Below are positions 21,808-45,606 of a DNA stretch of 64,000 nt, piece after piece. The stretch lies in NCBI GenBank assembly GCA_041736555.1, contig JBGSTJ010000008.1, forward strand, positions 62,084 to 126,083, in the 5' to 3' direction. Both the position numbers and the translations under genes were made by a program. The stretch comes from Cyclobacteriaceae bacterium (lineage in GTDB: Bacteria; Bacteroidota; Bacteroidia; Cytophagales; Cyclobacteriaceae). Positions within the stretch are counted from its first letter, which is position 1, and the number at the start of each line of letters is the position of its first letter. Under the pieces are notes generated by a model. That model ran no database searches and was not told the origin of the DNA. It saw nothing but the letters and a program-made list of their open reading frames with translations.

Positions 21808-21946
21808 GGAGAGATATTAAAAAAATCTTTAAAAACTTAAAGAAAAGGCTTGACGATAAAAGATCAAATAAAAAAAGAGGGTGATTTTGATTGCTGACGC
21901 TGACAATTATTCCATAATTCTTATCTAAACTGAAACCATTATCCAT

Positions 21947-21973
21947 AAAAAAGGCTGAATCAACGATTCAGCC
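21947..21973 (-). terminator. rho-independent terminator of the small histone-like gene
   Basis: GGCTGAATC, loop aac, GATTCAGCC, with an A-run on the plus strand that is a U-run for the minus-strand transcript. Confidence 0.7.
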
Positions 21974-21998
21974 TTTTTTATTCAGAAGACCACATCAA

Positions 21999-37043: not shown

Positions 37044-37874
37044 ATGAAAGTGAGTTACCTGCTTTCCGTATGGATGCTTTTTTCATTTCACCTGCAGGCC
37101 CAGTTGGTGGATGATATGACTGATGAAAGTAAACTCTTTGCCGAATCCAAACAGGTGAATCAGTTTTTCAGACGCTTCAACGGAGAAGAGGACAAAAAGG
37201 GAAACCGCTATACATCGCAAGACAAAGCCTATCGTAGTGCTAAACTCCGAAAGAAATATTTCAGCGTTCTGTTTGATGAAAATAACAAGGGAATCAATAC
37301 ATCACTCAAGAGTGAATTCGTAAATCAGGTAGTGGAGCGCGAAGTTCCATCTTTTCTGAATTTTCACGGACCCCAGTGGTTCTCTGAAGTATCGGCAGTT
37401 TTTACATCTAACGGCAAAGAGCAGCCAATAACCTTATTTATGGAACTGGAGAAAGATCACCTGGGACACAAGTGGGTAATTCGAAAAGTGCATGCCGAAA
37501 TGTATCAACCCTATTTTGATCATGATACCACCAGGGTCGGCAGCTTTCTGCATCCATTAAGTCATGAGTTGGATTTCATGAACCTGCACAAAGCATTTAA
37601 TAAAAGTGATAGCATCAGTCAGTTTACGGCTAAGCGTTTTATACCCGATCACCTTTCTGTATTTCTATACGAATTCAAAAAGGGAACGTTGAAATTCAAA
37701 TCCGTACGCGAAGTGAAATTTCATTTCTTTCAGATAGACGGCTGGTATTTTGAACTGGCCGACTTTAACAGGCCCGGATACAACACCGGTTGGCTGATTT
37801 CTAATCTTGTAAAACTAAATACGGATGCTGAAAAGATTCTCCTGCAAAGATATTTATTCCATGAGACGAAATAA
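37044..37874 (+). CDS. hypothetical secreted protein
   Basis: Signal peptide ending LQAQ. The 3' end overlaps the LRR gene start by 14 nt. Confidence 0.6.
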   Translation: MKVSYLLSVWMLFSFHLQAQLVDDMTDESKLFAESKQVNQFFRRFNGEEDKKGNRYTSQDKAYRSAKLRKKYFSVLFDENNKGINTSLKSEFVNQVVEREVPSFLNFHGPQWFSEVSAVFTSNGKEQPITLFMELEKDHLGHKWVIRKVHAEMYQPYFDHDTTRVGSFLHPLSHELDFMNLHKAFNKSDSISQFTAKRFIPDHLSVFLYEFKKGTLKFKSVREVKFHFFQIDGWYFELADFNRPGYNTGWLISNLVKLNTDAEKILLQRYLFHETK

Positions 37875-40332
37875 CTGGTTGCTGGTGCTTGTGCTGTTGG
37901 TTTGTTCGCTCCCGGTATTGGCACAAAAAAAACCGACTAAGAAACCAGCAAAAGTTGTTGACACAAAACCTGTGGTAACGAAACCTGATCTGGCTGCGGA
38001 TGAAAAAAAAGTTCGGGATATGGTGGCCTTCCTGGAATTTATGCTCAACACCCTGGGCAATAGCAGCACACCCATACGCGACAAAGAAATAGTGATCACA
38101 GAAAGTTATGCGAAGATCTTCCGCGATTCAAAAGTGCAGGTGGAAGATGATCTGGATAATGAACGGAAGGTGATTACCAATAAAGACGTAGTGGCATACC
38201 TGAAAGATGTTAATTTCTTTTTCCATGATGTAAGGTTTGAATTTACCATTGAGAGTATTACCAGCAGTACCTTACCCGATGGTCAAACGTTTTATAAAGT
38301 CACCACTACCCGAAACCTGAAAGGGAATACCGTTGACCTCACACCGGTAAATTCAACGCTTGCCCGCTACATCGAGATCAATTACAATCCTGTTGATCAG
38401 GATCTTAAAATCGTAAGCCTTTATACGCACGAGTTTGATGAGAAGGTAGCCTTGATGAGCTGGTGGAAGGAGATGCCATCGGAATGGAAATCTGTATTCA
38501 CGGAAAGACTTATCCTCTCGGATAGCGCTACCCTGAACGACCTCAAGACGATGGCTTCTCTCACCGAATTAGACATTAGCAATAATAGCAACATTCAGGA
38601 TCTTACACCGCTGTCTCAATTGATTAACCTTACTTCGCTCAATCTGTCGGGCATACCCGTTAGCGATCTTACCCCCATCCGCAATCTTACGGAGTTGGTT
38701 GAGTTAAACATCGCCCATACTTCTATTACCGATTTATCGCCTTTAAAATATTCTAATAAGATAAGCCGGTTGATGATGAACAACACGGCCGTGGTTGATA
38801 TCACCGTATTGGAAAAAATGCCGGCATTAAAACACCTCGAAATGCGAGGGACCCAGGTTAACAACTGGATGCCGCTTGCCAAACTGGTGGCATTGCAAGA
38901 GGTAGATGTCAGTAATACAAAAATTATCAGCCTCACTCCTTTTGAAAATCTTTTGACGATCACGGAATTAACGTTGTCCAACACGCTTGTGGATGATGTT
39001 GAACCCTTAAAAAACCTGCGCATGCTTACGAAGCTTACGCTGGACAGTACAAAGATTCGCACGTTGGCAGGACTAGGTTCCATTGAAATGTTGGAGACGC
39101 TTTCCATTAATCATACGGCTGTCTCCGATCTTGCTCCGTTGCAAAAACTTGAGCATCTGGAAAAAATTTATTGTGACAATACCGGTATCAACCAGGAAGC
39201 TGCCAATGCATTTATGGCGTTACATGCTAACGTGCTGGTCATCTTTGATTCGGAAGATTTGAAAGTATGGTGGAATCAGCTCTCGCCAGATTGGCAAACT
39301 GTTTTTTCAAGATCGGCCGGGCTGGACGGGAATCCCACCAAGGAAGAATTGGCCATCATTCCCTTGCTTGATTCCATTAACCTGCATGGCAATCAGAACC
39401 TTAATAATCTTGAACCACTCACCCGGTTAACAAAACTTAAATTCCTGCTTGCCAACAAGACATCGATTTCAGATCTGGAACCGCTCCAAGGACTTGCTGA
39501 GATCACTTATCTCGATATCAGTGGCACAAATGTAAGTGAGCTTTCTGTGCTGGGTACATTGAAACACCTGACATCCTTAAAAGCAGATGACAGCCAAATA
39601 AAAAATATAGAAAAGTTAACATTCAAAAGCCTGAAGCATTTCTATGCGGATAACTCCGGTATCACCGATGACGTTGCTGCCGCTTTCCTGAAATTAAATC
39701 CTGCTTGTTTATTGGTGTACAAGACAGCTACGCTGAAAACGTGGTGGAGCAACCTTTCTGAAACCTGGCAGGAGGTATTCACGAAGCAGCTTGGCGCCAA
39801 CCCCGATGCTTCGCGGGAAAAACTCCATACACTCATTCAACAACCAACACTTGAAATTAACAACGCCCCGATCAGCGATCTTGCCGCACTGAGCAAATAC
39901 ATTCGTTTACAGGAACTTCACTTTTCGGGAACCTCGATTACTACGATCACCCTGCCCGAAAATATTCATACCCTCAAATCCCTGCATGCAACAAACAGTC
40001 CTATTAAGGACATTAAGTCATTACCTGTGCTAACGGAGTTGGAAGATCTTGATGTTTCCAATACACCCATCGATGATGTGTATGAGTTGTGGAAACTGAA
40101 AAAGTTAACCAAACTAAATTGTGCGGGTACACAAATCAAAAGACTGGATGCCCTGGAGAAAATGGAAAACCTCACCTACCTGGATTGTTCCAACACCAAT
40201 GTTAATAAACTCAGTGCGCTGGACTATCTTCCACTGAAGACACTGAAGTGTTTTAATACCCGGATTCCCAACCGGGTGATAGAAAACTTTAAGGCCAGTC
40301 ACCCGGAGTGTGATGTGGTTTATTACCGGTAG
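37861..40332 (+). CDS. secreted leucine-rich-repeat protein (three LRR blocks)
   Basis: Start moved to MRRNNWLLVLVLLVCSLPVLAQ. About 25 22-residue LRRs (L..L..L.L..T.I.DL.PL) fall in three blocks. Each block is preceded by a WW..L...W..VF module. Confidence 0.8.
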   Translation: MRRNNWLLVLVLLVCSLPVLAQKKPTKKPAKVVDTKPVVTKPDLAADEKKVRDMVAFLEFMLNTLGNSSTPIRDKEIVITESYAKIFRDSKVQVEDDLDNERKVITNKDVVAYLKDVNFFFHDVRFEFTIESITSSTLPDGQTFYKVTTTRNLKGNTVDLTPVNSTLARYIEINYNPVDQDLKIVSLYTHEFDEKVALMSWWKEMPSEWKSVFTERLILSDSATLNDLKTMASLTELDISNNSNIQDLTPLSQLINLTSLNLSGIPVSDLTPIRNLTELVELNIAHTSITDLSPLKYSNKISRLMMNNTAVVDITVLEKMPALKHLEMRGTQVNNWMPLAKLVALQEVDVSNTKIISLTPFENLLTITELTLSNTLVDDVEPLKNLRMLTKLTLDSTKIRTLAGLGSIEMLETLSINHTAVSDLAPLQKLEHLEKIYCDNTGINQEAANAFMALHANVLVIFDSEDLKVWWNQLSPDWQTVFSRSAGLDGNPTKEELAIIPLLDSINLHGNQNLNNLEPLTRLTKLKFLLANKTSISDLEPLQGLAEITYLDISGTNVSELSVLGTLKHLTSLKADDSQIKNIEKLTFKSLKHFYADNSGITDDVAAAFLKLNPACLLVYKTATLKTWWSNLSETWQEVFTKQLGANPDASREKLHTLIQQPTLEINNAPISDLAALSKYIRLQELHFSGTSITTITLPENIHTLKSLHATNSPIKDIKSLPVLTELEDLDVSNTPIDDVYELWKLKKLTKLNCAGTQIKRLDALEKMENLTYLDCSNTNVNKLSALDYLPLKTLKCFNTRIPNRVIENFKASHPECDVVYYR

Positions 40333-40370
40333 GTTAAAAATGATATTTGATTTTACTTACCACGTAAAAA

Positions 40371-40507
40371 AGGAGGCTGTCTCAAAAGTCAATTAAAATT
40401 AAAATGTCATTCCGGCCTTTTGAGCCGGAATCCCATCATTCGTGCACAAAATGAGATCGTCAAGCCTGAGGCTTGACGATGACAGACTACTTTTGAGACA
40501 GCCTCCT
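40371..40507. repeat. nested multi-hairpin intergenic element, copy 1
   Basis: 19-bp outer inverted repeat AGGAGGCTGTCTCAAAAGT / ACTTTTGAGACAGCCTCCT. It encloses hairpin ATTCCGGC-cttttga-GCCGGAAT (40409-40431) and hairpin ATCGTCAAGCC-tga-GGCTTGACGAT (40456-40480). Confidence 0.85.
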
Positions 40508-40523
40508 CTTAAATCTTACATTC

Positions 40524-41432
40524 TTAAATATTACCCTTTACTTCTACGGTTCGTGATTGACCATTGATTGTAACGGTCACGATTTTATCGCACTCACCGG
40601 TTCCATAATCGATGGTAATTACTTTGTTGTTGTCTACTGTTAATACTTTTACTCCTTCCACAGCCATGAATACTTTGTTGTTAATCGCACACTCACGTTT
40701 GTACACCAGGGGTGTAGTAATATCCACCTGGTAAACCCCGCCATTTCGGTTAGTACCAGCTGCGGTGCCATCCACTATCCACTCATCTTGTAAGGGGTTG
40801 GTTCCTCTTATCCATTCACGGGTGCGGTTTACTTCGCGGGTTGCTGTTGAACCATCCGGCCAGGTTGCTTTACCACCCTCCAGTACGATAGAGAATTTAG
40901 GACTTGCTTCCGTGCTTCCCGTAACATTGGTAACGGTGCGGGTTCCTTCTATCTGAACGTCATTAATAGAGTACCCGTCAAACGTGGTTATGATTTTAGA
41001 ACCCGATAAGAAACGTTTGCCCATAAATTCAACAACCATGATTCCTTTGCGCACATTTCCTTTGCCATCGGTACAGCCTGTTCCGAAATCGATCGTGATG
41101 TAGCCATGCGGAGTAGTTGTACTATTGTCGGCAGCAAATTCAAACGTTACGGTTGCACAATTGAAACGTAAATCACCGTTGGGCTTAACGCCACCCCGGC
41201 CTGAAGCTGATTGTCTCGAGCCCGATAAAGTTGATCCATCGGCAGCAACAGCCAGGGTTGCTATATCGTCAGCATCTTCAAAATAGCCATCGGTAGCGGC
41301 TTCATTTTCTACATTTTCTGAATCATTGACACTCAGGTCAAACTTGTCATCTGTACACGAAGCCAGAAATACCAAAGTAATTAAAGCCAGACCCGAAAGA
41401 CCCTTTAAGAATGCATTTTTCATTGTTTTCAT
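40524..41432 (-). CDS. hypothetical lipoprotein
   Basis: Signal peptide with lipobox FLASC. Internally duplicated I(T/D)(I/Y)DFGTG(C/EC) motif. Confidence 0.65.
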   Translation of the reverse strand: MKTMKNAFLKGLSGLALITLVFLASCTDDKFDLSVNDSENVENEAATDGYFEDADDIATLAVAADGSTLSGSRQSASGRGGVKPNGDLRFNCATVTFEFAADNSTTTPHGYITIDFGTGCTDGKGNVRKGIMVVEFMGKRFLSGSKIITTFDGYSINDVQIEGTRTVTNVTGSTEASPKFSIVLEGGKATWPDGSTATREVNRTREWIRGTNPLQDEWIVDGTAAGTNRNGGVYQVDITTPLVYKRECAINNKVFMAVEGVKVLTVDNNKVITIDYGTGECDKIVTVTINGQSRTVEVKGNI

Positions 41433-42304: not shown

Positions 42305-42676
42305 ATGAAAGAGTTAACGAAAGCCGAAGATCAAATCATGCAGGTTTTATGGAACCTTGAAAAAGGGTTTGTAAAAGATATCATTGATCAGTTGCCGGAA
42401 CCCAAGCCTGCCTACAATACGGTGTCCACGATTGTAAGAATTCTGGAGAAGAAAGGTTTTGTGGGTTATAAAGCGTTTGGTAAAACGCATGAGTACTTTC
42501 CGTTGATCGGCAAAGAAAAATATACACGGTTTTATCTTAACAATATGGTGAAAGGATACTTCGATGGCTCATTCCAAAATCTGGTTTCTTTTTTCGCAAA
42601 AGAAAATAAAATGGATGTGCAGGATATCGATCAGCTCATGAAAGAACTCGAACTTCTTAAAAACAAAAAGCCATGA
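42305..42676 (+). CDS. BlaI/MecI/CopY-family transcriptional repressor
   Basis: LTKAEDQIMQVLW...YNTVSTIVRILEKKGFV winged-helix pattern. 123 aa. Confidence 0.88.
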   Translation: MKELTKAEDQIMQVLWNLEKGFVKDIIDQLPEPKPAYNTVSTIVRILEKKGFVGYKAFGKTHEYFPLIGKEKYTRFYLNNMVKGYFDGSFQNLVSFFAKENKMDVQDIDQLMKELELLKNKKP

Positions 42677-44253
42677 TAACATTCATCAACTACCTGATTG
42701 AAGTAAACCTGGGGTTGGTCTTCTTTTATGCTATTTACTGGCTGTTATTGCAAAACGAAAACCAATTTGAGTTTAAGCGCATTTATCTGGTAGGCAGTTT
42801 GTGTGCTTCCCTCCTCTTTCCGGCCTTCACCATTGAATCGCAATCACTGGTACTGATTCCTTCCCTGAGTGAATCGATGCCAGCCCATTGGCTACCGGAA
42901 ATAACCGTTTATGGAGATGGACAAGCAGCTCCCGAACGCGTGATTGCTCCGACAAGCAAGTGGACCTGGATCACCTACGCTTACTTTACGGTTACTGCTA
43001 TCATCCTGCTCATTTTCATCATTCGGTTGGTTGCCATCGCCAGGCTTTACATAACCGCCACACGCTATGCATGGAAAAATTATACCGTGGCTGAATCTAC
43101 TAACGTAAAAGGTATCTTTTCTTTTTTTCAATTCATCTTCTTAAGCCCGGCAGAGAATTTAGATGAGCAAGAGAAGCTGGAAATTCTCCGGCACGAAGAA
43201 GTTCACATTCAAAAACTACATTCATTCGATATTCTCTTGATCCATGTTATCGGCATTGTGTGCTGGTTCAATCCGGTGATCAAGCGTTATAAAAAATCCC
43301 TGGTTCAGATTCATGAGTTTGAAGCCGATGCGCGCTCGGTGGAAGGTCGGGATGTGAACGAGTATTGCGGCTTGCTGGCGAAAGTTGCTTTACAATCCCA
43401 TGGGTATGTACTCGCCAATCATTTTACCAATTCCTTCACCTTAAAACGAATTACCATGATGAAAACCGTTAGAAAGAAAATAAAACAATGGAAGGTAGTT
43501 ACCGTATCGGTTACTGCTTTGCTGATCTTTTTTGCAGTGGCTTGCCAGGATCAGGTTATCAAGGAAATTAAATCCATAACGAAAGAATCAACGATGGTTG
43601 ATGAAGCTAGTTATGATAAGGAAGTTGTAACAATTATTAATACGTTAAAGGCCAATAATCCCGGTAAGGAGTATTTTGTCATGCAAATTCCAAAAAAAGA
43701 AGCTCAGGAGAAATTTAAAGAATTGGAATTGCAACATAAGAGTCAAGTGAAAGGTTTGGTTGCGAATATAGATGAGGATGGAAGTTTCTATGCCGTGTTT
43801 GAAAAAGGTGCAATGAGCAACCAACTTTCAGAATTAACTGCCAATGAAGATGGCGTGTACTCGATTGTTGATGAAACTTCAGAGCCTAAAGGTGGTATGA
43901 TTGAATTTTACAATCATGTTGCGAAGGAGATAAAATATCCAGCACAAGCAAGAAGCATGGGCGTAGAAGGTCGGGTATTTGTTGAGTTTATCGTGAACAA
44001 AGACGGGTCAATCACAAACACACAAGTTATTAAAGGCATAGGTGCCGGATGTGATGAAGAAGCAGCGCGGGTAGTTGCAGCCGCCAAACCCTGGCAACCT
44101 GCCAAAGTGAAAGGCCAGGTTGTAAAACAAAGAATGGTTATACCGATCATCTTTCAACTAGAAAATTCAACTAAAAAAGTTGAGTTGGGTCAGGCGCCAA
44201 AAAACACCATGGAAGAAATGGTGGTGGTGGGGCACGATAAGAAAAATGATTAA
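42673..44253 (+). CDS. M56 (BlaR1-like) peptidase-domain sensor fused to a TonB C-terminal domain
   Basis: 4-nt overlap with the blaI-like gene. TM helices, HEEVHIQKLH zinc motif, and C-terminal PKGG...YPAQARSMGVEGRVFVEFIVNKDGSI TonB-C fold. Confidence 0.85.
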   Translation: MITFINYLIEVNLGLVFFYAIYWLLLQNENQFEFKRIYLVGSLCASLLFPAFTIESQSLVLIPSLSESMPAHWLPEITVYGDGQAAPERVIAPTSKWTWITYAYFTVTAIILLIFIIRLVAIARLYITATRYAWKNYTVAESTNVKGIFSFFQFIFLSPAENLDEQEKLEILRHEEVHIQKLHSFDILLIHVIGIVCWFNPVIKRYKKSLVQIHEFEADARSVEGRDVNEYCGLLAKVALQSHGYVLANHFTNSFTLKRITMMKTVRKKIKQWKVVTVSVTALLIFFAVACQDQVIKEIKSITKESTMVDEASYDKEVVTIINTLKANNPGKEYFVMQIPKKEAQEKFKELELQHKSQVKGLVANIDEDGSFYAVFEKGAMSNQLSELTANEDGVYSIVDETSEPKGGMIEFYNHVAKEIKYPAQARSMGVEGRVFVEFIVNKDGSITNTQVIKGIGAGCDEEAARVVAAAKPWQPAKVKGQVVKQRMVIPIIFQLENSTKKVELGQAPKNTMEEMVVVGHDKKND

Positions 44254-44263
44254 TAAAAGAGAC

Positions 44264-44435
44264 GAGGCCGTCTCAAAAGTCCAATAAAATTTGAATGTCA
44301 TTCCGGCCCTGCCTGCTCCGCCAAATGGCGGATTCGGCAAAGGCAGGCCTGAGCCGGAATCTCATCATCCGTTAACAAACCGGGATCGTCAAGCCTGAGG
44401 CTTGACGATGACCGGACGACTTTTGAGACGGCCTC
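44264..44435. repeat. nested multi-hairpin intergenic element, copy 2 (with extra palindrome in hairpin-1 loop)
   Basis: Outer repeat GAGGCCGTCTCAAAAGT / ACTTTTGAGACGGCCTC. Hairpin 1 arms at 44300-44307 and 44353-44360 enclose CCTGCCT...CCGCC-aaat-GGCGG...AGGCAGG. Hairpin 2 (44385-44409) is identical to copy 1. Confidence 0.85.
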
Positions 44436-44469
44436 TCTTCCTTTTAAACTTATGATTTAAGTTTGTTAC

Positions 44470-45606
44470 TTAAATCCCACCCATCACCTCTTCCAACTTC
44501 TTATCTAACGCAGCACCCCGTAAATTCTTTGCGATTATCTTTCCTTCTTTGTCTACTAAAATAGAAAAGGGAATTGCACTGATGTTATAATCGGTAGCGG
44601 CCTTGGACTCGAAATATTTCAAATCTGAAACATGGGTCCAGGTCAGGCCATCTTCCGCAATAGCTTGCACCCAATCTTCTTTGTTTCTATCCAACGATAC
44701 GCCAAAAACCTCAAAACCTTTGTCTTTGAATTTGTTGTAGGCCATTACTACGTTTGGATTCTCCCTGCGGCACGGTCCGCACCACTTCGCCCAGAAATCA
44801 ATCAACACAAATTTTCCACGCAGGGAAGATAACTTGATCACCTGACCATCAGGATTGGGCAACTCAATCTCCGGTGCAACCTGGCCAACAGCCGTTACCT
44901 TCATCTTTTCTACATATTGAACAAACTCCTTTCCATATTTATAGTCGGGCCATTCTTTTTTGAATTTATCGGCTGCCGTTGTATAAACATCAAAATATTT
45001 ATCCCGATCCAGTAAATTGTTTTGTTGCAGGAGTGTAATGAGGCCTAAAGAAGGCGGCTGATCGTTGATCATTGCCGCAACCTGGTCATATCCCCGATCC
45101 AGCATCTGCATGTATTCCGCTTGTATTTCTTTGATCCTCGTTTGATCATTGTTTTGAGATGCTTTGGCAAACTCTGCTTCGAGTTGTGAAATGAATGGCG
45201 AACTCTGAACATTATTCATCAAGGTTTGCACCTTAGTCAGCAATTCCTGGTCCGGGGATCCTTTTACTTCAAAAAATCCGGAAGGACTGTTGCCATCCAC
45301 AGTAACCTCTAAGTTGCTATGATCAAGGATAACGGTAAGAAATTGTTTGTCGTAAAAATTCAATTGATAATAGCCAGGTTCTGTCAACCGGATTTTCTTG
45401 GCGAAAGTATAATCCGCTTTTAATTGAATGGTATCCGCTGCTACCTCACCCTCATTCCTTAATTCTTTGATGGAGATTTGTCCCTTTTGTGGAAATCCTA
45501 CTTTGCCTTTAACGGTTATTTCCCAGCCTTTTTCTTCTTTACAACCAATTGTAAATATTGAAATCATTATTACCATCAACAACACCAACTTTTTCATATC
45601 ATTCAT
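44470..45606 (-). CDS. TlpA-family thiol:disulfide oxidoreductase lipoprotein
   Basis: Lipobox TIGC, an N-terminal beta-rich domain, and a C-terminal thioredoxin fold with WAKWCGPC. Confidence 0.85.
   Translation of the reverse strand: MNDMKKLVLLMVIMISIFTIGCKEEKGWEITVKGKVGFPQKGQISIKELRNEGEVAADTIQLKADYTFAKKIRLTEPGYYQLNFYDKQFLTVILDHSNLEVTVDGNSPSGFFEVKGSPDQELLTKVQTLMNNVQSSPFISQLEAEFAKASQNNDQTRIKEIQAEYMQMLDRGYDQVAAMINDQPPSLGLITLLQQNNLLDRDKYFDVYTTAADKFKKEWPDYKYGKEFVQYVEKMKVTAVGQVAPEIELPNPDGQVIKLSSLRGKFVLIDFWAKWCGPCRRENPNVVMAYNKFKDKGFEVFGVSLDRNKEDWVQAIAEDGLTWTHVSDLKYFESKAATDYNISAIPFSILVDKEGKIIAKNLRGAALDKKLEEVMGGI

Follow-up and report, generated by a model that had tools for sequence, protein, structure and literature searches.

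A 64,000-nucleotide stretch of DNA from a Cyclobacteriaceae bacterium (contig JBGSTJ010000008.1, positions 62,084 to 126,083; hereafter the window) contains two palindromic elements, and they raise the question of whether such a structure is an RNA under selection, a terminator or mobile DNA. An original prediction, made from the sequence alone, had described a perfect outer inverted repeat of 17-19 bp around internal hairpins with 8-bp and 11-bp stems, a second copy of like architecture at 44264-44435, a paired T-A versus C-G difference between the arms of the two copies, a location of both copies between convergent genes, and a run of six A at the left arm of copy 1. Each of these features was recovered, the gene arrangement from the coordinates of the open reading frames (ORFs) and the A-run at 40366-40371; copy 2 was found to carry an extra 40-nt hairpin in the loop of hairpin 1. 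Our analysis indicates, with a probability that we put at about 0.85, that both elements are copies of a non-autonomous MITE (miniature inverted-repeat transposable element) of ~130 bp, which targets hairpins and whose 17-20 bp terminal inverted repeats (TIRs) are those of an ISMsp1-like branch of the IS1182 insertion-sequence (IS) family.

Outer arms and the ends of IS1182-family insertion sequences

The outer arm, GAGGC[T/C]GTCTCAAAAGT, was found to be identical to the TIRs that bound IS1182-family insertion sequences in Bacteroidota, among them the named element ISMsp1. When one genome per species was scanned with the pattern GAGGCNGTCTCAAAAGT, at least 120 loci were obtained (L numbers below denote retrieved loci). 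Among the matches listed, nearly all came from Bacteroidota, Ignavibacteria and their relatives, together with a few from Bacillota and a few evident chance matches in coding sequence. The arm was conserved and its interior lineage-specific, since 70 of 131 arm occurrences among these matches enclosed very diverse interiors; a further 21 formed plain hairpins with T-runs, and 40 had no partner within 450 nt. A conserved 17-mer that often stands in inverted pairs at gene ends could also be read as a signal resembling a DNA uptake sequence (DUS), that is, as an over-represented motif whose inverted pairs double as terminators, as in Neisseria; its GCCGTCT bears a superficial resemblance to the Neisseria DUS. 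However, the retrieved loci held only about one extra copy per 85 kb, far below the density of uptake sequences, and the motif was essentially absent from coding sequence and is fully explained as IS ends. This reading was rejected on copy density, and we give it next to no credence.

A total of 1144 ORFs within 1.5 kb of arms were screened. The sole recurrent mobile-element gene encoded a protein of 500-550 aa (in L018, L062, L090, L105, and L111), and the remaining recurrent neighbours were housekeeping or toxin genes (BNR/sortilin, ABC-F, sigma-54 activator, RHS-colicin E5, and GH109). The protein bracketed by arms is an IS1182-family transposase, matching NCBIfam NF033551 at 414-431 bits (cutoff 270) as well as Pfam DUF772 and DDE_Tnp_1_6. 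In six IS copies from different genera (these five loci and ISMsp1), the transposase gene lies between GAGGCTGTCTCAAAAGT and ACTTTTGAGAC(A/G)GCCTC, which in the five loci stand ~0-130 nt upstream and ~100-190 nt downstream of it, respectively. ISMsp1, which shares these ends, resides on plasmid pSD15 of Microscilla sp. PRE1 (L235), and a second, truncated copy on the same plasmid was 99.6% identical to it up to GGCCTCTT, beyond which the flanks diverge. Because the two copies match up to this point and then diverge, the arm is an IS terminus rather than an insertion target. Moreover, diverged homologous ends were found in other IS1182 clades (GAGGTTGTGTCAAAACG in ISBf3 and GGGGCTGTCCCAAAAGT in a Paenibacillus IS), so that the arm sequence shifts with the transposase clade, as expected of transposase-binding ends. 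ISMsp1 and its relatives in Algoriphagus, Dyadobacter, and Putridiphycobacter are identical to the window elements over the terminal 17-20 bp, AAGAGGC(T/C)GTCTCAAAAG, including the T and C variants; they differ in being 1.7-1.8 kb long and in carrying a transposase gene, and only the ends are held in common.

It could be argued that the arms belong instead to a host family of hairpins or terminators into whose loop IS1182 merely inserts, the window elements being such hairpins with other loop material. IS1182-family members do target hairpins, complementarity runs a few bases past the 17-mer in L018 and L111, and the 21 plain hairpins noted above have the form GAGGCTGTCTCAAAAGT-n-GAGACAGCCTC followed by a T-run. 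Yet two ISMsp1 copies with different flanks have the arm in common to its last base, the arm varies with the transposase clade, and arms and interior arrived together at a site where an unrelated hairpin was ancestral (see below); nor does any host function account for the conservation of a 17-mer at non-homologous loci throughout a phylum. We consider this explanation very improbable.

Several further observations were made on these ends. In the full-length insertion sequences (ISMsp1/L235, L018, L062, L090, and L105), a partner segment and then a T-run come after each end, and the hairpin thus formed has G.U pairs only on the strand that is read from outside (for example, GAGGCCGTCTC...GAGATGGTCTC-T8). 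The IS ends therefore look like putative inward-facing terminators that would shield the transposase gene, and two of them placed face to face, as in the MITE, would give a bidirectional one. A second recurrent element of ~120 nt with the same IS1182 ends was encountered in nine loci (L003, L030, L047, L065, L095, L107, L113, L040, and L102) from Chitinophagaceae, Mucilaginibacter, and Flavobacterium; it retains the end hairpin and TTTTTATTCGG...GTTTAAGCGATTCTCAG and is, as judged by its ends, another MITE lineage of the IS1182 family. The exact Bacteroidota-type 17-mer was also seen at hairpins or MITE-like elements in Bacillota (L005, L008, L043, and L110, from Bacillus, Paenibacillus, Sporosarcina, and Anoxybacillus), and a preprint cataloguing MITEs reports one cluster common to Paenibacillus and Chryseobacterium; this IS group may have spread horizontally.

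Dispersal and insertion context

Metagenomes were scanned with a pattern that joins the arm to hairpin 1, and the 100 loci obtained yielded 81 complete elements with 72 distinct flank pairs. The recurrence beyond the window on which the original prediction depended was thus found. Assembly Ga0209573 accounted for at least 18 of the matches and Ga0268299 for at least 13. Two copies on one contig (L135 and L162) were 100% identical in spite of unrelated flanks, and one 129-nt sequence was common to five distinct sites. The subfamily is a dispersed, recently active repeat. Its basic form measures 127-134 nt, and copies that carry a nested module (described below) measure 142-173 nt.

The insertion context was examined in the 72 distinct copies. 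A target-site duplication, sought as a direct repeat of at least 3 nt, was present in none of them (0/72), as expected, because the IS1272-type branch of IS1182 makes none. Among 47 copies whose gene context could be classified, the flanking genes were convergent for 33, tandem for 13, and divergent for 1, so that 46 of 47 faced at least one gene 3' end; one further copy lay inside an ORF. Divergent regions were likewise avoided by the phylum-wide set of arms (2/51 divergent). An A- or T-run of at least 4 was found on at least one side of 47 of the 72 copies, and on both sides of 16.

The interior of the element proved to be an inverted doublet of small hairpin units (TGTCAT-stem-loop-stem-ATC), the upper stems of which are exchanged between copies. 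Such a doublet recalls repetitive extragenic palindromic (REP) sequences, whose superfamilies bear the 5' tags GTAG or CGTC, and the elements might accordingly be REPs or REPINs moved as single-stranded DNA by a REP-associated tyrosine transposase (RAYT), an IS200/IS605-like Y1 transposase. The intergenic location and the missing target duplication fit this proposal, and REPINs of Pseudomonas (PMC3337134) are also inverted doublets of short hairpin units that make no target duplication. In the window elements, however, the doublet is enclosed by DDE-type IS ends, which match IS1182 elements and not REPs, and the units start with TGTCAT rather than with either tag. The original prediction had also called for a search for a RAYT/TnpA(REP)-type gene; no recurrent Y1 transposase was detected among the 1144 ORFs in the neighbourhood of the elements, where IS1182 was the sole mobile-element gene. 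Its suggestion of a REP/MITE-like repeat consequently holds for the MITE, with IS1182-family TIRs, and is disfavoured for the REP, with which ends, unit tags, and the neighbour screen all disagree. We regard transposition by a RAYT as highly unlikely.

Seven copies in Ga0209573-type assemblies (L140, L171, L173, L218, L223, L231, and L234) were located beside RHS-type toxin genes with a colicin E5 domain. The same copies abut another repeated hairpin, TTCACTAATCCCGAAGGGATAACAG, which suggests that small repeats form clusters there.

Filled and empty sites

Orthologous loci were retrieved by using the 302-aa predicted lipoprotein that flanks copy 1 as the query; site 1 and site 2 denote the positions of copies 1 and 2. 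By the orthologues of this protein, the window belongs to Cyclobacteriaceae. In L122, where the orthologue is 100% identical, both sites were free of the element and had simple hairpins instead. Site 1 was also without the element in L129 (91% orthologue, same neighbours). There the two flanks, GAA(T)GTAAGATT and, opposite it, T-run-A(T/C)GTGG...ATCATTTTTAACC, are homologous to the window, and a simple terminator, GGGCTTCTGC-TTTCGG-GCAGAAGC (GGGCTTCTGCTTTCGGGCAGAAGC followed by T9), stands at the exact place of the window's 133-bp element. Because all of the more distant orthologues (L128, L130, and L132-134) have a simple hairpin and a T-run at site 1, the simple hairpin is ancestral; its stem is of the CTTCTGC type in L128 and L132-134 and different in L130. 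Judged from these alignments, the element at site 1 has replaced the ancestral hairpin GCTTCTGC-TTTCGG-GCAGAAGC, of which the stem base and the T-run were kept, and the A6 run of copy 1 appears to correspond to that T-run, preserved at the junction. Site 1 was found to be filled in L125 (94%) and in the Logan contigs L123, L124, and L126.

At site 2, the element was present in L226, the flanks of which are 100% and 97% identical to those of the window. The interior of this copy is in the opposite orientation (124 of 132 positions identical to the window's forward strand) and lacks the 40-nt insert, and the rare C/G arm variant is kept despite the inversion. The difference reflects either a flipping of the interior in situ, between its inverted arms, or a second insertion at this site.

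Changes of other kinds were noted at both sites. In the closest relatives, the gene at 42673-44253 has another C-terminal part and an added CarboxypepD_reg domain (compared in L122 / L125, 577 aa, and L128, 522 aa); because this BlaR/M56-TonB_C-type gene differs in its C-terminal part, the region around site 2 is a mosaic. At site 1, the upper stem of hairpin 3 reads TCAAGCC-TGA-GGCTTGA in the window and CCCCG-ATGTAT-CGGGG in L123 and L124 above a constant base, GATCG...CGATGAC, although the flanking protein of these two loci is 100% identical to the window's. At least four stem variants of hairpin 3 circulate among the copies, which suggests patch gene conversion between copies or hairpin-directed replacement. 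Logan short-read contigs of close relatives were also found to end inside the element (L121, L123, L124, and L126, with L123 and L124 ending at the same base), consistent with assembly breaks at a repeated palindrome.

Pairing, covariation and termination

Both copies are predicted to fold very stably. Copy 1 reached -66.8 kcal/mol, compared with -28.9 +/- 3.6 for shuffled sequences (z = -10.4), and copy 2 reached -100.7, compared with -53.3 +/- 4.2 (z = -11.4). When 34 distinct copies were aligned, 95.3% of cells were paired, 10 pairs showed double changes, a number above all 500 shuffles, and the middle stem alternated between CG, UA, and UG. Taken by themselves, these data would favour a structured RNA selected by the host, such as a small RNA, an mRNA-stabilising 3' structure, or a dedicated terminator, with the arm difference as true covariation. 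Nevertheless, a mobile DNA that is palindromic produces equal counts, and the shuffle control makes no correction for relatedness among the copies. At the eight arm positions left free by the search pattern, the 72 copies showed 79 single-arm changes versus 16 paired ones, and the arm mismatches (31 G.T, 24 A.C, and 38 other) revealed no clear G.U bias; mostly uncompensated changes without such a bias give no sign of strand-specific RNA selection. Furthermore, the interior occurs in either orientation at one locus, the closest relative (L122) lacks the element at both sites, and the Rfam search that the original prediction had proposed gave 0 matches at the gathering score in the window and none on the elements at E values up to 10. 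Selection for an RNA structure thus seems scarcely credible to us.

The paired arm difference itself was traced to the insertion sequences. At the arm position concerned, ISMsp1, L018, L090, and L105 carry T at the left end and C at the right end; copy 1 is therefore of a left-end/left-end type and copy 2 of a right-end/right-end type. Because the T-A versus C-G difference equals the left- and right-end variants of the parent IS1182-family element, it does not constitute evidence of RNA covariation, and the original prediction's argument from this change to a pairing-selected RNA fails. Palindrome-templated correction, as occurs in quasipalindrome template switching, is possible as a further explanation of the paired change. 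Once an IS1182-type MITE is accepted, the proposed roles as a structured noncoding RNA and as a protein-binding cruciform are no longer needed.

Termination has a different standing. At site 1 the element removed the resident terminator of the gene pair, its own stem is very stable, and A- and T-tracts flank it; copy 1 offers a U6 tract for the minus-strand gene but a poor one for the plus-strand gene, and copy 2 is followed on either side, after 5-6 nt, by a U-rich tail. The element probably acts as a replacement bidirectional terminator. A simple terminator scan, which is blind to long composite stems, found only hairpin 3 and a small junction hairpin. The original proposal of a bidirectional terminator would accordingly stand only as a plausible secondary consequence of insertion, the element sitting on former terminator sites between convergent genes.

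Proposed mechanism and comparison with known systems

Correia elements (MITEs of Neisseria) and the enterobacterial ERIC and REP-BIME sequences share with the window elements a small size, a palindromic sequence, and dispersal over intergenic regions; they form folded structures in transcripts and can serve as terminators or in processing and stability. They differ from the MITE described here in that Correia elements duplicate TA and have different ends, and in that REP/BIME sequences are moved by RAYTs. To our knowledge, IS1182 ends occur in none of them, nor is any known to take the place of a resident terminator hairpin.

A closer parallel is provided by IS1272 and TnSha1 of the IS1182 family, which always integrate into hairpins, several of them confirmed terminators (Furi et al. 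2016, PMC4923244). Their target is always partly deleted, no target duplication is made, and one target can be hit repeatedly and in both orientations (PMC4923244); a review cited in PMC4923244 states that some IS1182 members target palindromes. All of these insertion signatures (hairpin, partial deletion, no duplication, either orientation) were seen in the family of the window elements, and the transposase family is that of the presumed mobiliser. The two systems differ in form: the two elements from Bacillota measure 1.9-3 kb, one being an autonomous IS and the other an IS-plus-gene transposon, whereas the present elements are non-coding, 130-170 bp long, and from Bacteroidota.

On this basis, we propose that an IS1182-family transposase encoded elsewhere in the genome would recognise both ends and move the element in trans. 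As with IS1272 and TnSha1, integration would occur into DNA hairpins, which in practice means the intrinsic terminators found at the 3' ends of genes; the stem would be cut, most of the old hairpin deleted, and no target-site duplication made. The A- and T-tracts of the old terminator would remain and now flank the ends of the element, and these ends, pairing as a long stem, would probably take over termination in both directions.

The properties of the elements agree with those of a MITE. They are small (below ~300 bp, the cores spanning 133 and 172 bp) and non-coding, with only short, non-conserved frames inside both copies, and their TIRs match an autonomous IS (17/17 identity to IS1182-family ends in six genera, including ISMsp1). 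Copies are dispersed over non-homologous loci, as the 72 flank pairs attest, and are polymorphic in presence (both sites empty in L122 and site 1 in L129; site 1 filled in L123-L126 and site 2 in L226). The target-site duplication of a typical MITE is missing; at site 1, insertion was IS1272-like, into a hairpin or terminator that was partly deleted, and the family is biased to gene 3' ends. Neither IS1182-family MITEs nor this element were found described in the searchable literature, the coverage of which is incomplete and leaves ISfinder outside. A full-text search with the arm sequence returned unrelated primers only, and the MITE-catalogue preprint makes no mention of IS1182, terminators, or hairpins. 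The element is thus an undescribed IS1182-type MITE, which makes it a further case of an already known kind of mobile DNA rather than a novel structured RNA; its more unusual aspects are the replacement of one terminator by another and the nested, separately polymorphic 40-nt hairpin.

A number of points weigh against this interpretation. The likeness to insertion sequences is limited to the 17-20 bp ends, and a parent IS with matching subterminal sequence was not found. No IS1182 transposase was detected in the 64 kb of the window, nor in related metagenome loci amounting to ~0.8 Mb (L135-L234). Hairpin targeting is documented in a staphylococcal member of the family; inverted-repeat ends were sought in one staphylococcal IS1182-family copy, but no clear ends emerged. 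The left junction at site 1 is not base-exact, in that L129, L122, and the window disagree at a few bases of the flank, and the junction at site 2 is blurred, the 3' end of the neighbouring gene differing too. Finally, copy 1 has a poor U-tract on the plus strand (CUCUUAAAUCUU).

If the elements are such MITEs, a 17-mer that recurs at gene ends in Bacteroidota, Ignavibacteria, and some Bacillota, and that could easily pass for a conserved RNA or a consensus of terminators, is explained as the ends of IS1182-family elements and their miniature derivatives. Hairpin-targeting, target-deleting, duplication-free insertion, as in staphylococcal IS1272 and TnSha1, would be extended to Bacteroidota and to MITEs, and the filled and empty sites would provide natural pairs that show a mobile terminator in place of the host's. 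In annotation, joint changes in both arms of a palindromic repeat should not be equated with RNA covariation; such repeats also break short-read assemblies.

The nested palindromic module

The 40-nt insert of copy 2 belongs to a palindromic module of 34-40 nt, CCTGCC...GGCAGG, that was observed in hairpin loops at 44308-44347 of the window and in L148, L214, L125:12599, L201:6098, L099:3242, L079:6768, and L025:310. Three pairs differ in its presence at the same site: the loop concerned is that of hairpin 3 in L148/L182 and that of hairpin 1 in both L155/L214 and window/L226. Both orientations occur (9 versus 3). Unrelated hairpins harbour the module as well, Ignavibacteriaceae and Chitinophagaceae have shorter forms of it, and L099 shows a third level of nesting; the module itself lacks IS1182 ends and shows no clear duplication. 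The surroundings of the module at L125:12599 are repetitive.

These observations allow a bolder and, on balance, doubtful extension of the MITE interpretation, in which mobile hairpins that seek out hairpins form a hierarchy. The MITE, each end of which would itself be half a terminator, might be a genome-wide, mobile, self-renewing bidirectional terminator cassette that displaces host terminators, inside which the 34-40 nt palindrome hops independently into hairpin loops, with stem exchange and the flip of the interior arising from the same hairpin-directed mechanism. Were this true, the palindrome would represent a kind of ultra-small mobile element that has yet to be described.

Layout of the two copies in the window

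The coordinates of both copies and of their neighbours are given in Table 1. The inverted repeat of copy 1 is perfect over 19 bp and, when extended, covers 22 nt at 95% (40368-40389 / 40489-40510). Apart from the 40-nt hairpin insert, copies 1 and 2 align end to end. When up to 3 mismatches were allowed, the 17-mer arm gave 6 matches in the window (4 exact arms and 2 weak ones), compared with 0.25 expected, and a search of the window for a third copy found none besides copies 1 and 2. The stop codons of the convergent genes lie 10-40 nt from the two elements.

Table 1. Coordinates of the two MITE copies, their parts, and the adjoining genes in the window (IRL and IRR, left and right inverted repeats of an IS).
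Feature	Coordinates	Strand	Description
MITE copy 1	40371..40507	.	137 bp with 19-bp perfect arms; 133 bp between 17-nt cores
Left TIR, copy 1	40371..40389	+	AG GAGGCTGTCTCAAAAGT; 17-nt core identical to IRL-type end of IS1182-family IS
Right TIR, copy 1	40489..40507	-	ACTTTTGAGACAGCCTC CT
A6 run	40366..40371	+	U6 tract behind the long stem in the transcript of the minus-strand gene
Inner unit 1, copy 1	40405..40431	+	TGTCAT, then 8-bp hairpin 1, ATTCCGGC / GCCGGAAT
Hairpin 1 stem, copy 1	40409-40416 / 40424-40431		8 bp
Central weak stem and loop, copy 1	40432..40455	+	CCCA / TGAG; stem covaries across the family (CG / UA / UG)
Arms of weak middle stem, copy 1	40432-40435 / 40452-40455		
Inner unit 2, copy 1	40456..40484	+	11-bp hairpin 3, ATCGTCAAGCC / GGCTTGACGAT, then GACA; inverted relative to unit 1
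Hairpin 3 stem, copy 1	40456-40466 / 40470-40480		11 bp
TGTC/GACA closure, copy 1	40405-40408 / 40481-40484		
MITE copy 2	44264..44435	.	172 bp; imperfect inverted repeat reaches 44255-44444
Left TIR, copy 2	44264..44280	+	GAGGCCGTCTCAAAAGT; identical to IRR-type end of ISMsp1, L018, L090
Right TIR, copy 2	44419..44435	-	ACTTTTGAGACGGCCTC
Nested 40-nt palindromic module CCTGCC...GGCAGG	44308..44347	.	in the loop of copy 2 hairpin 1
Hairpin 3, copy 2	44385..44409	+	identical to copy 1 hairpin 3
835-aa leucine-rich repeat (LRR) protein gene	37825..40332	+	convergent partner, site 1
302-aa predicted lipoprotein gene	40524..41432	-	convergent partner, site 1; query for orthologous loci
526-aa BlaR/M56-TonB_C-type gene	42673..44253	+	convergent partner, site 2
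378-aa thioredoxin/redoxin-family gene	44470..45606	-	convergent partner, site 2

An example of an ordinary terminator in this genome was seen at 21945-21981 of the window, where a perfect 17-bp simple hairpin, ATAAAAAAGGCTGAATC-GAT-GATTCAGCCTTTTTTAT, resembles a bidirectional terminator and is unrelated to the MITE.

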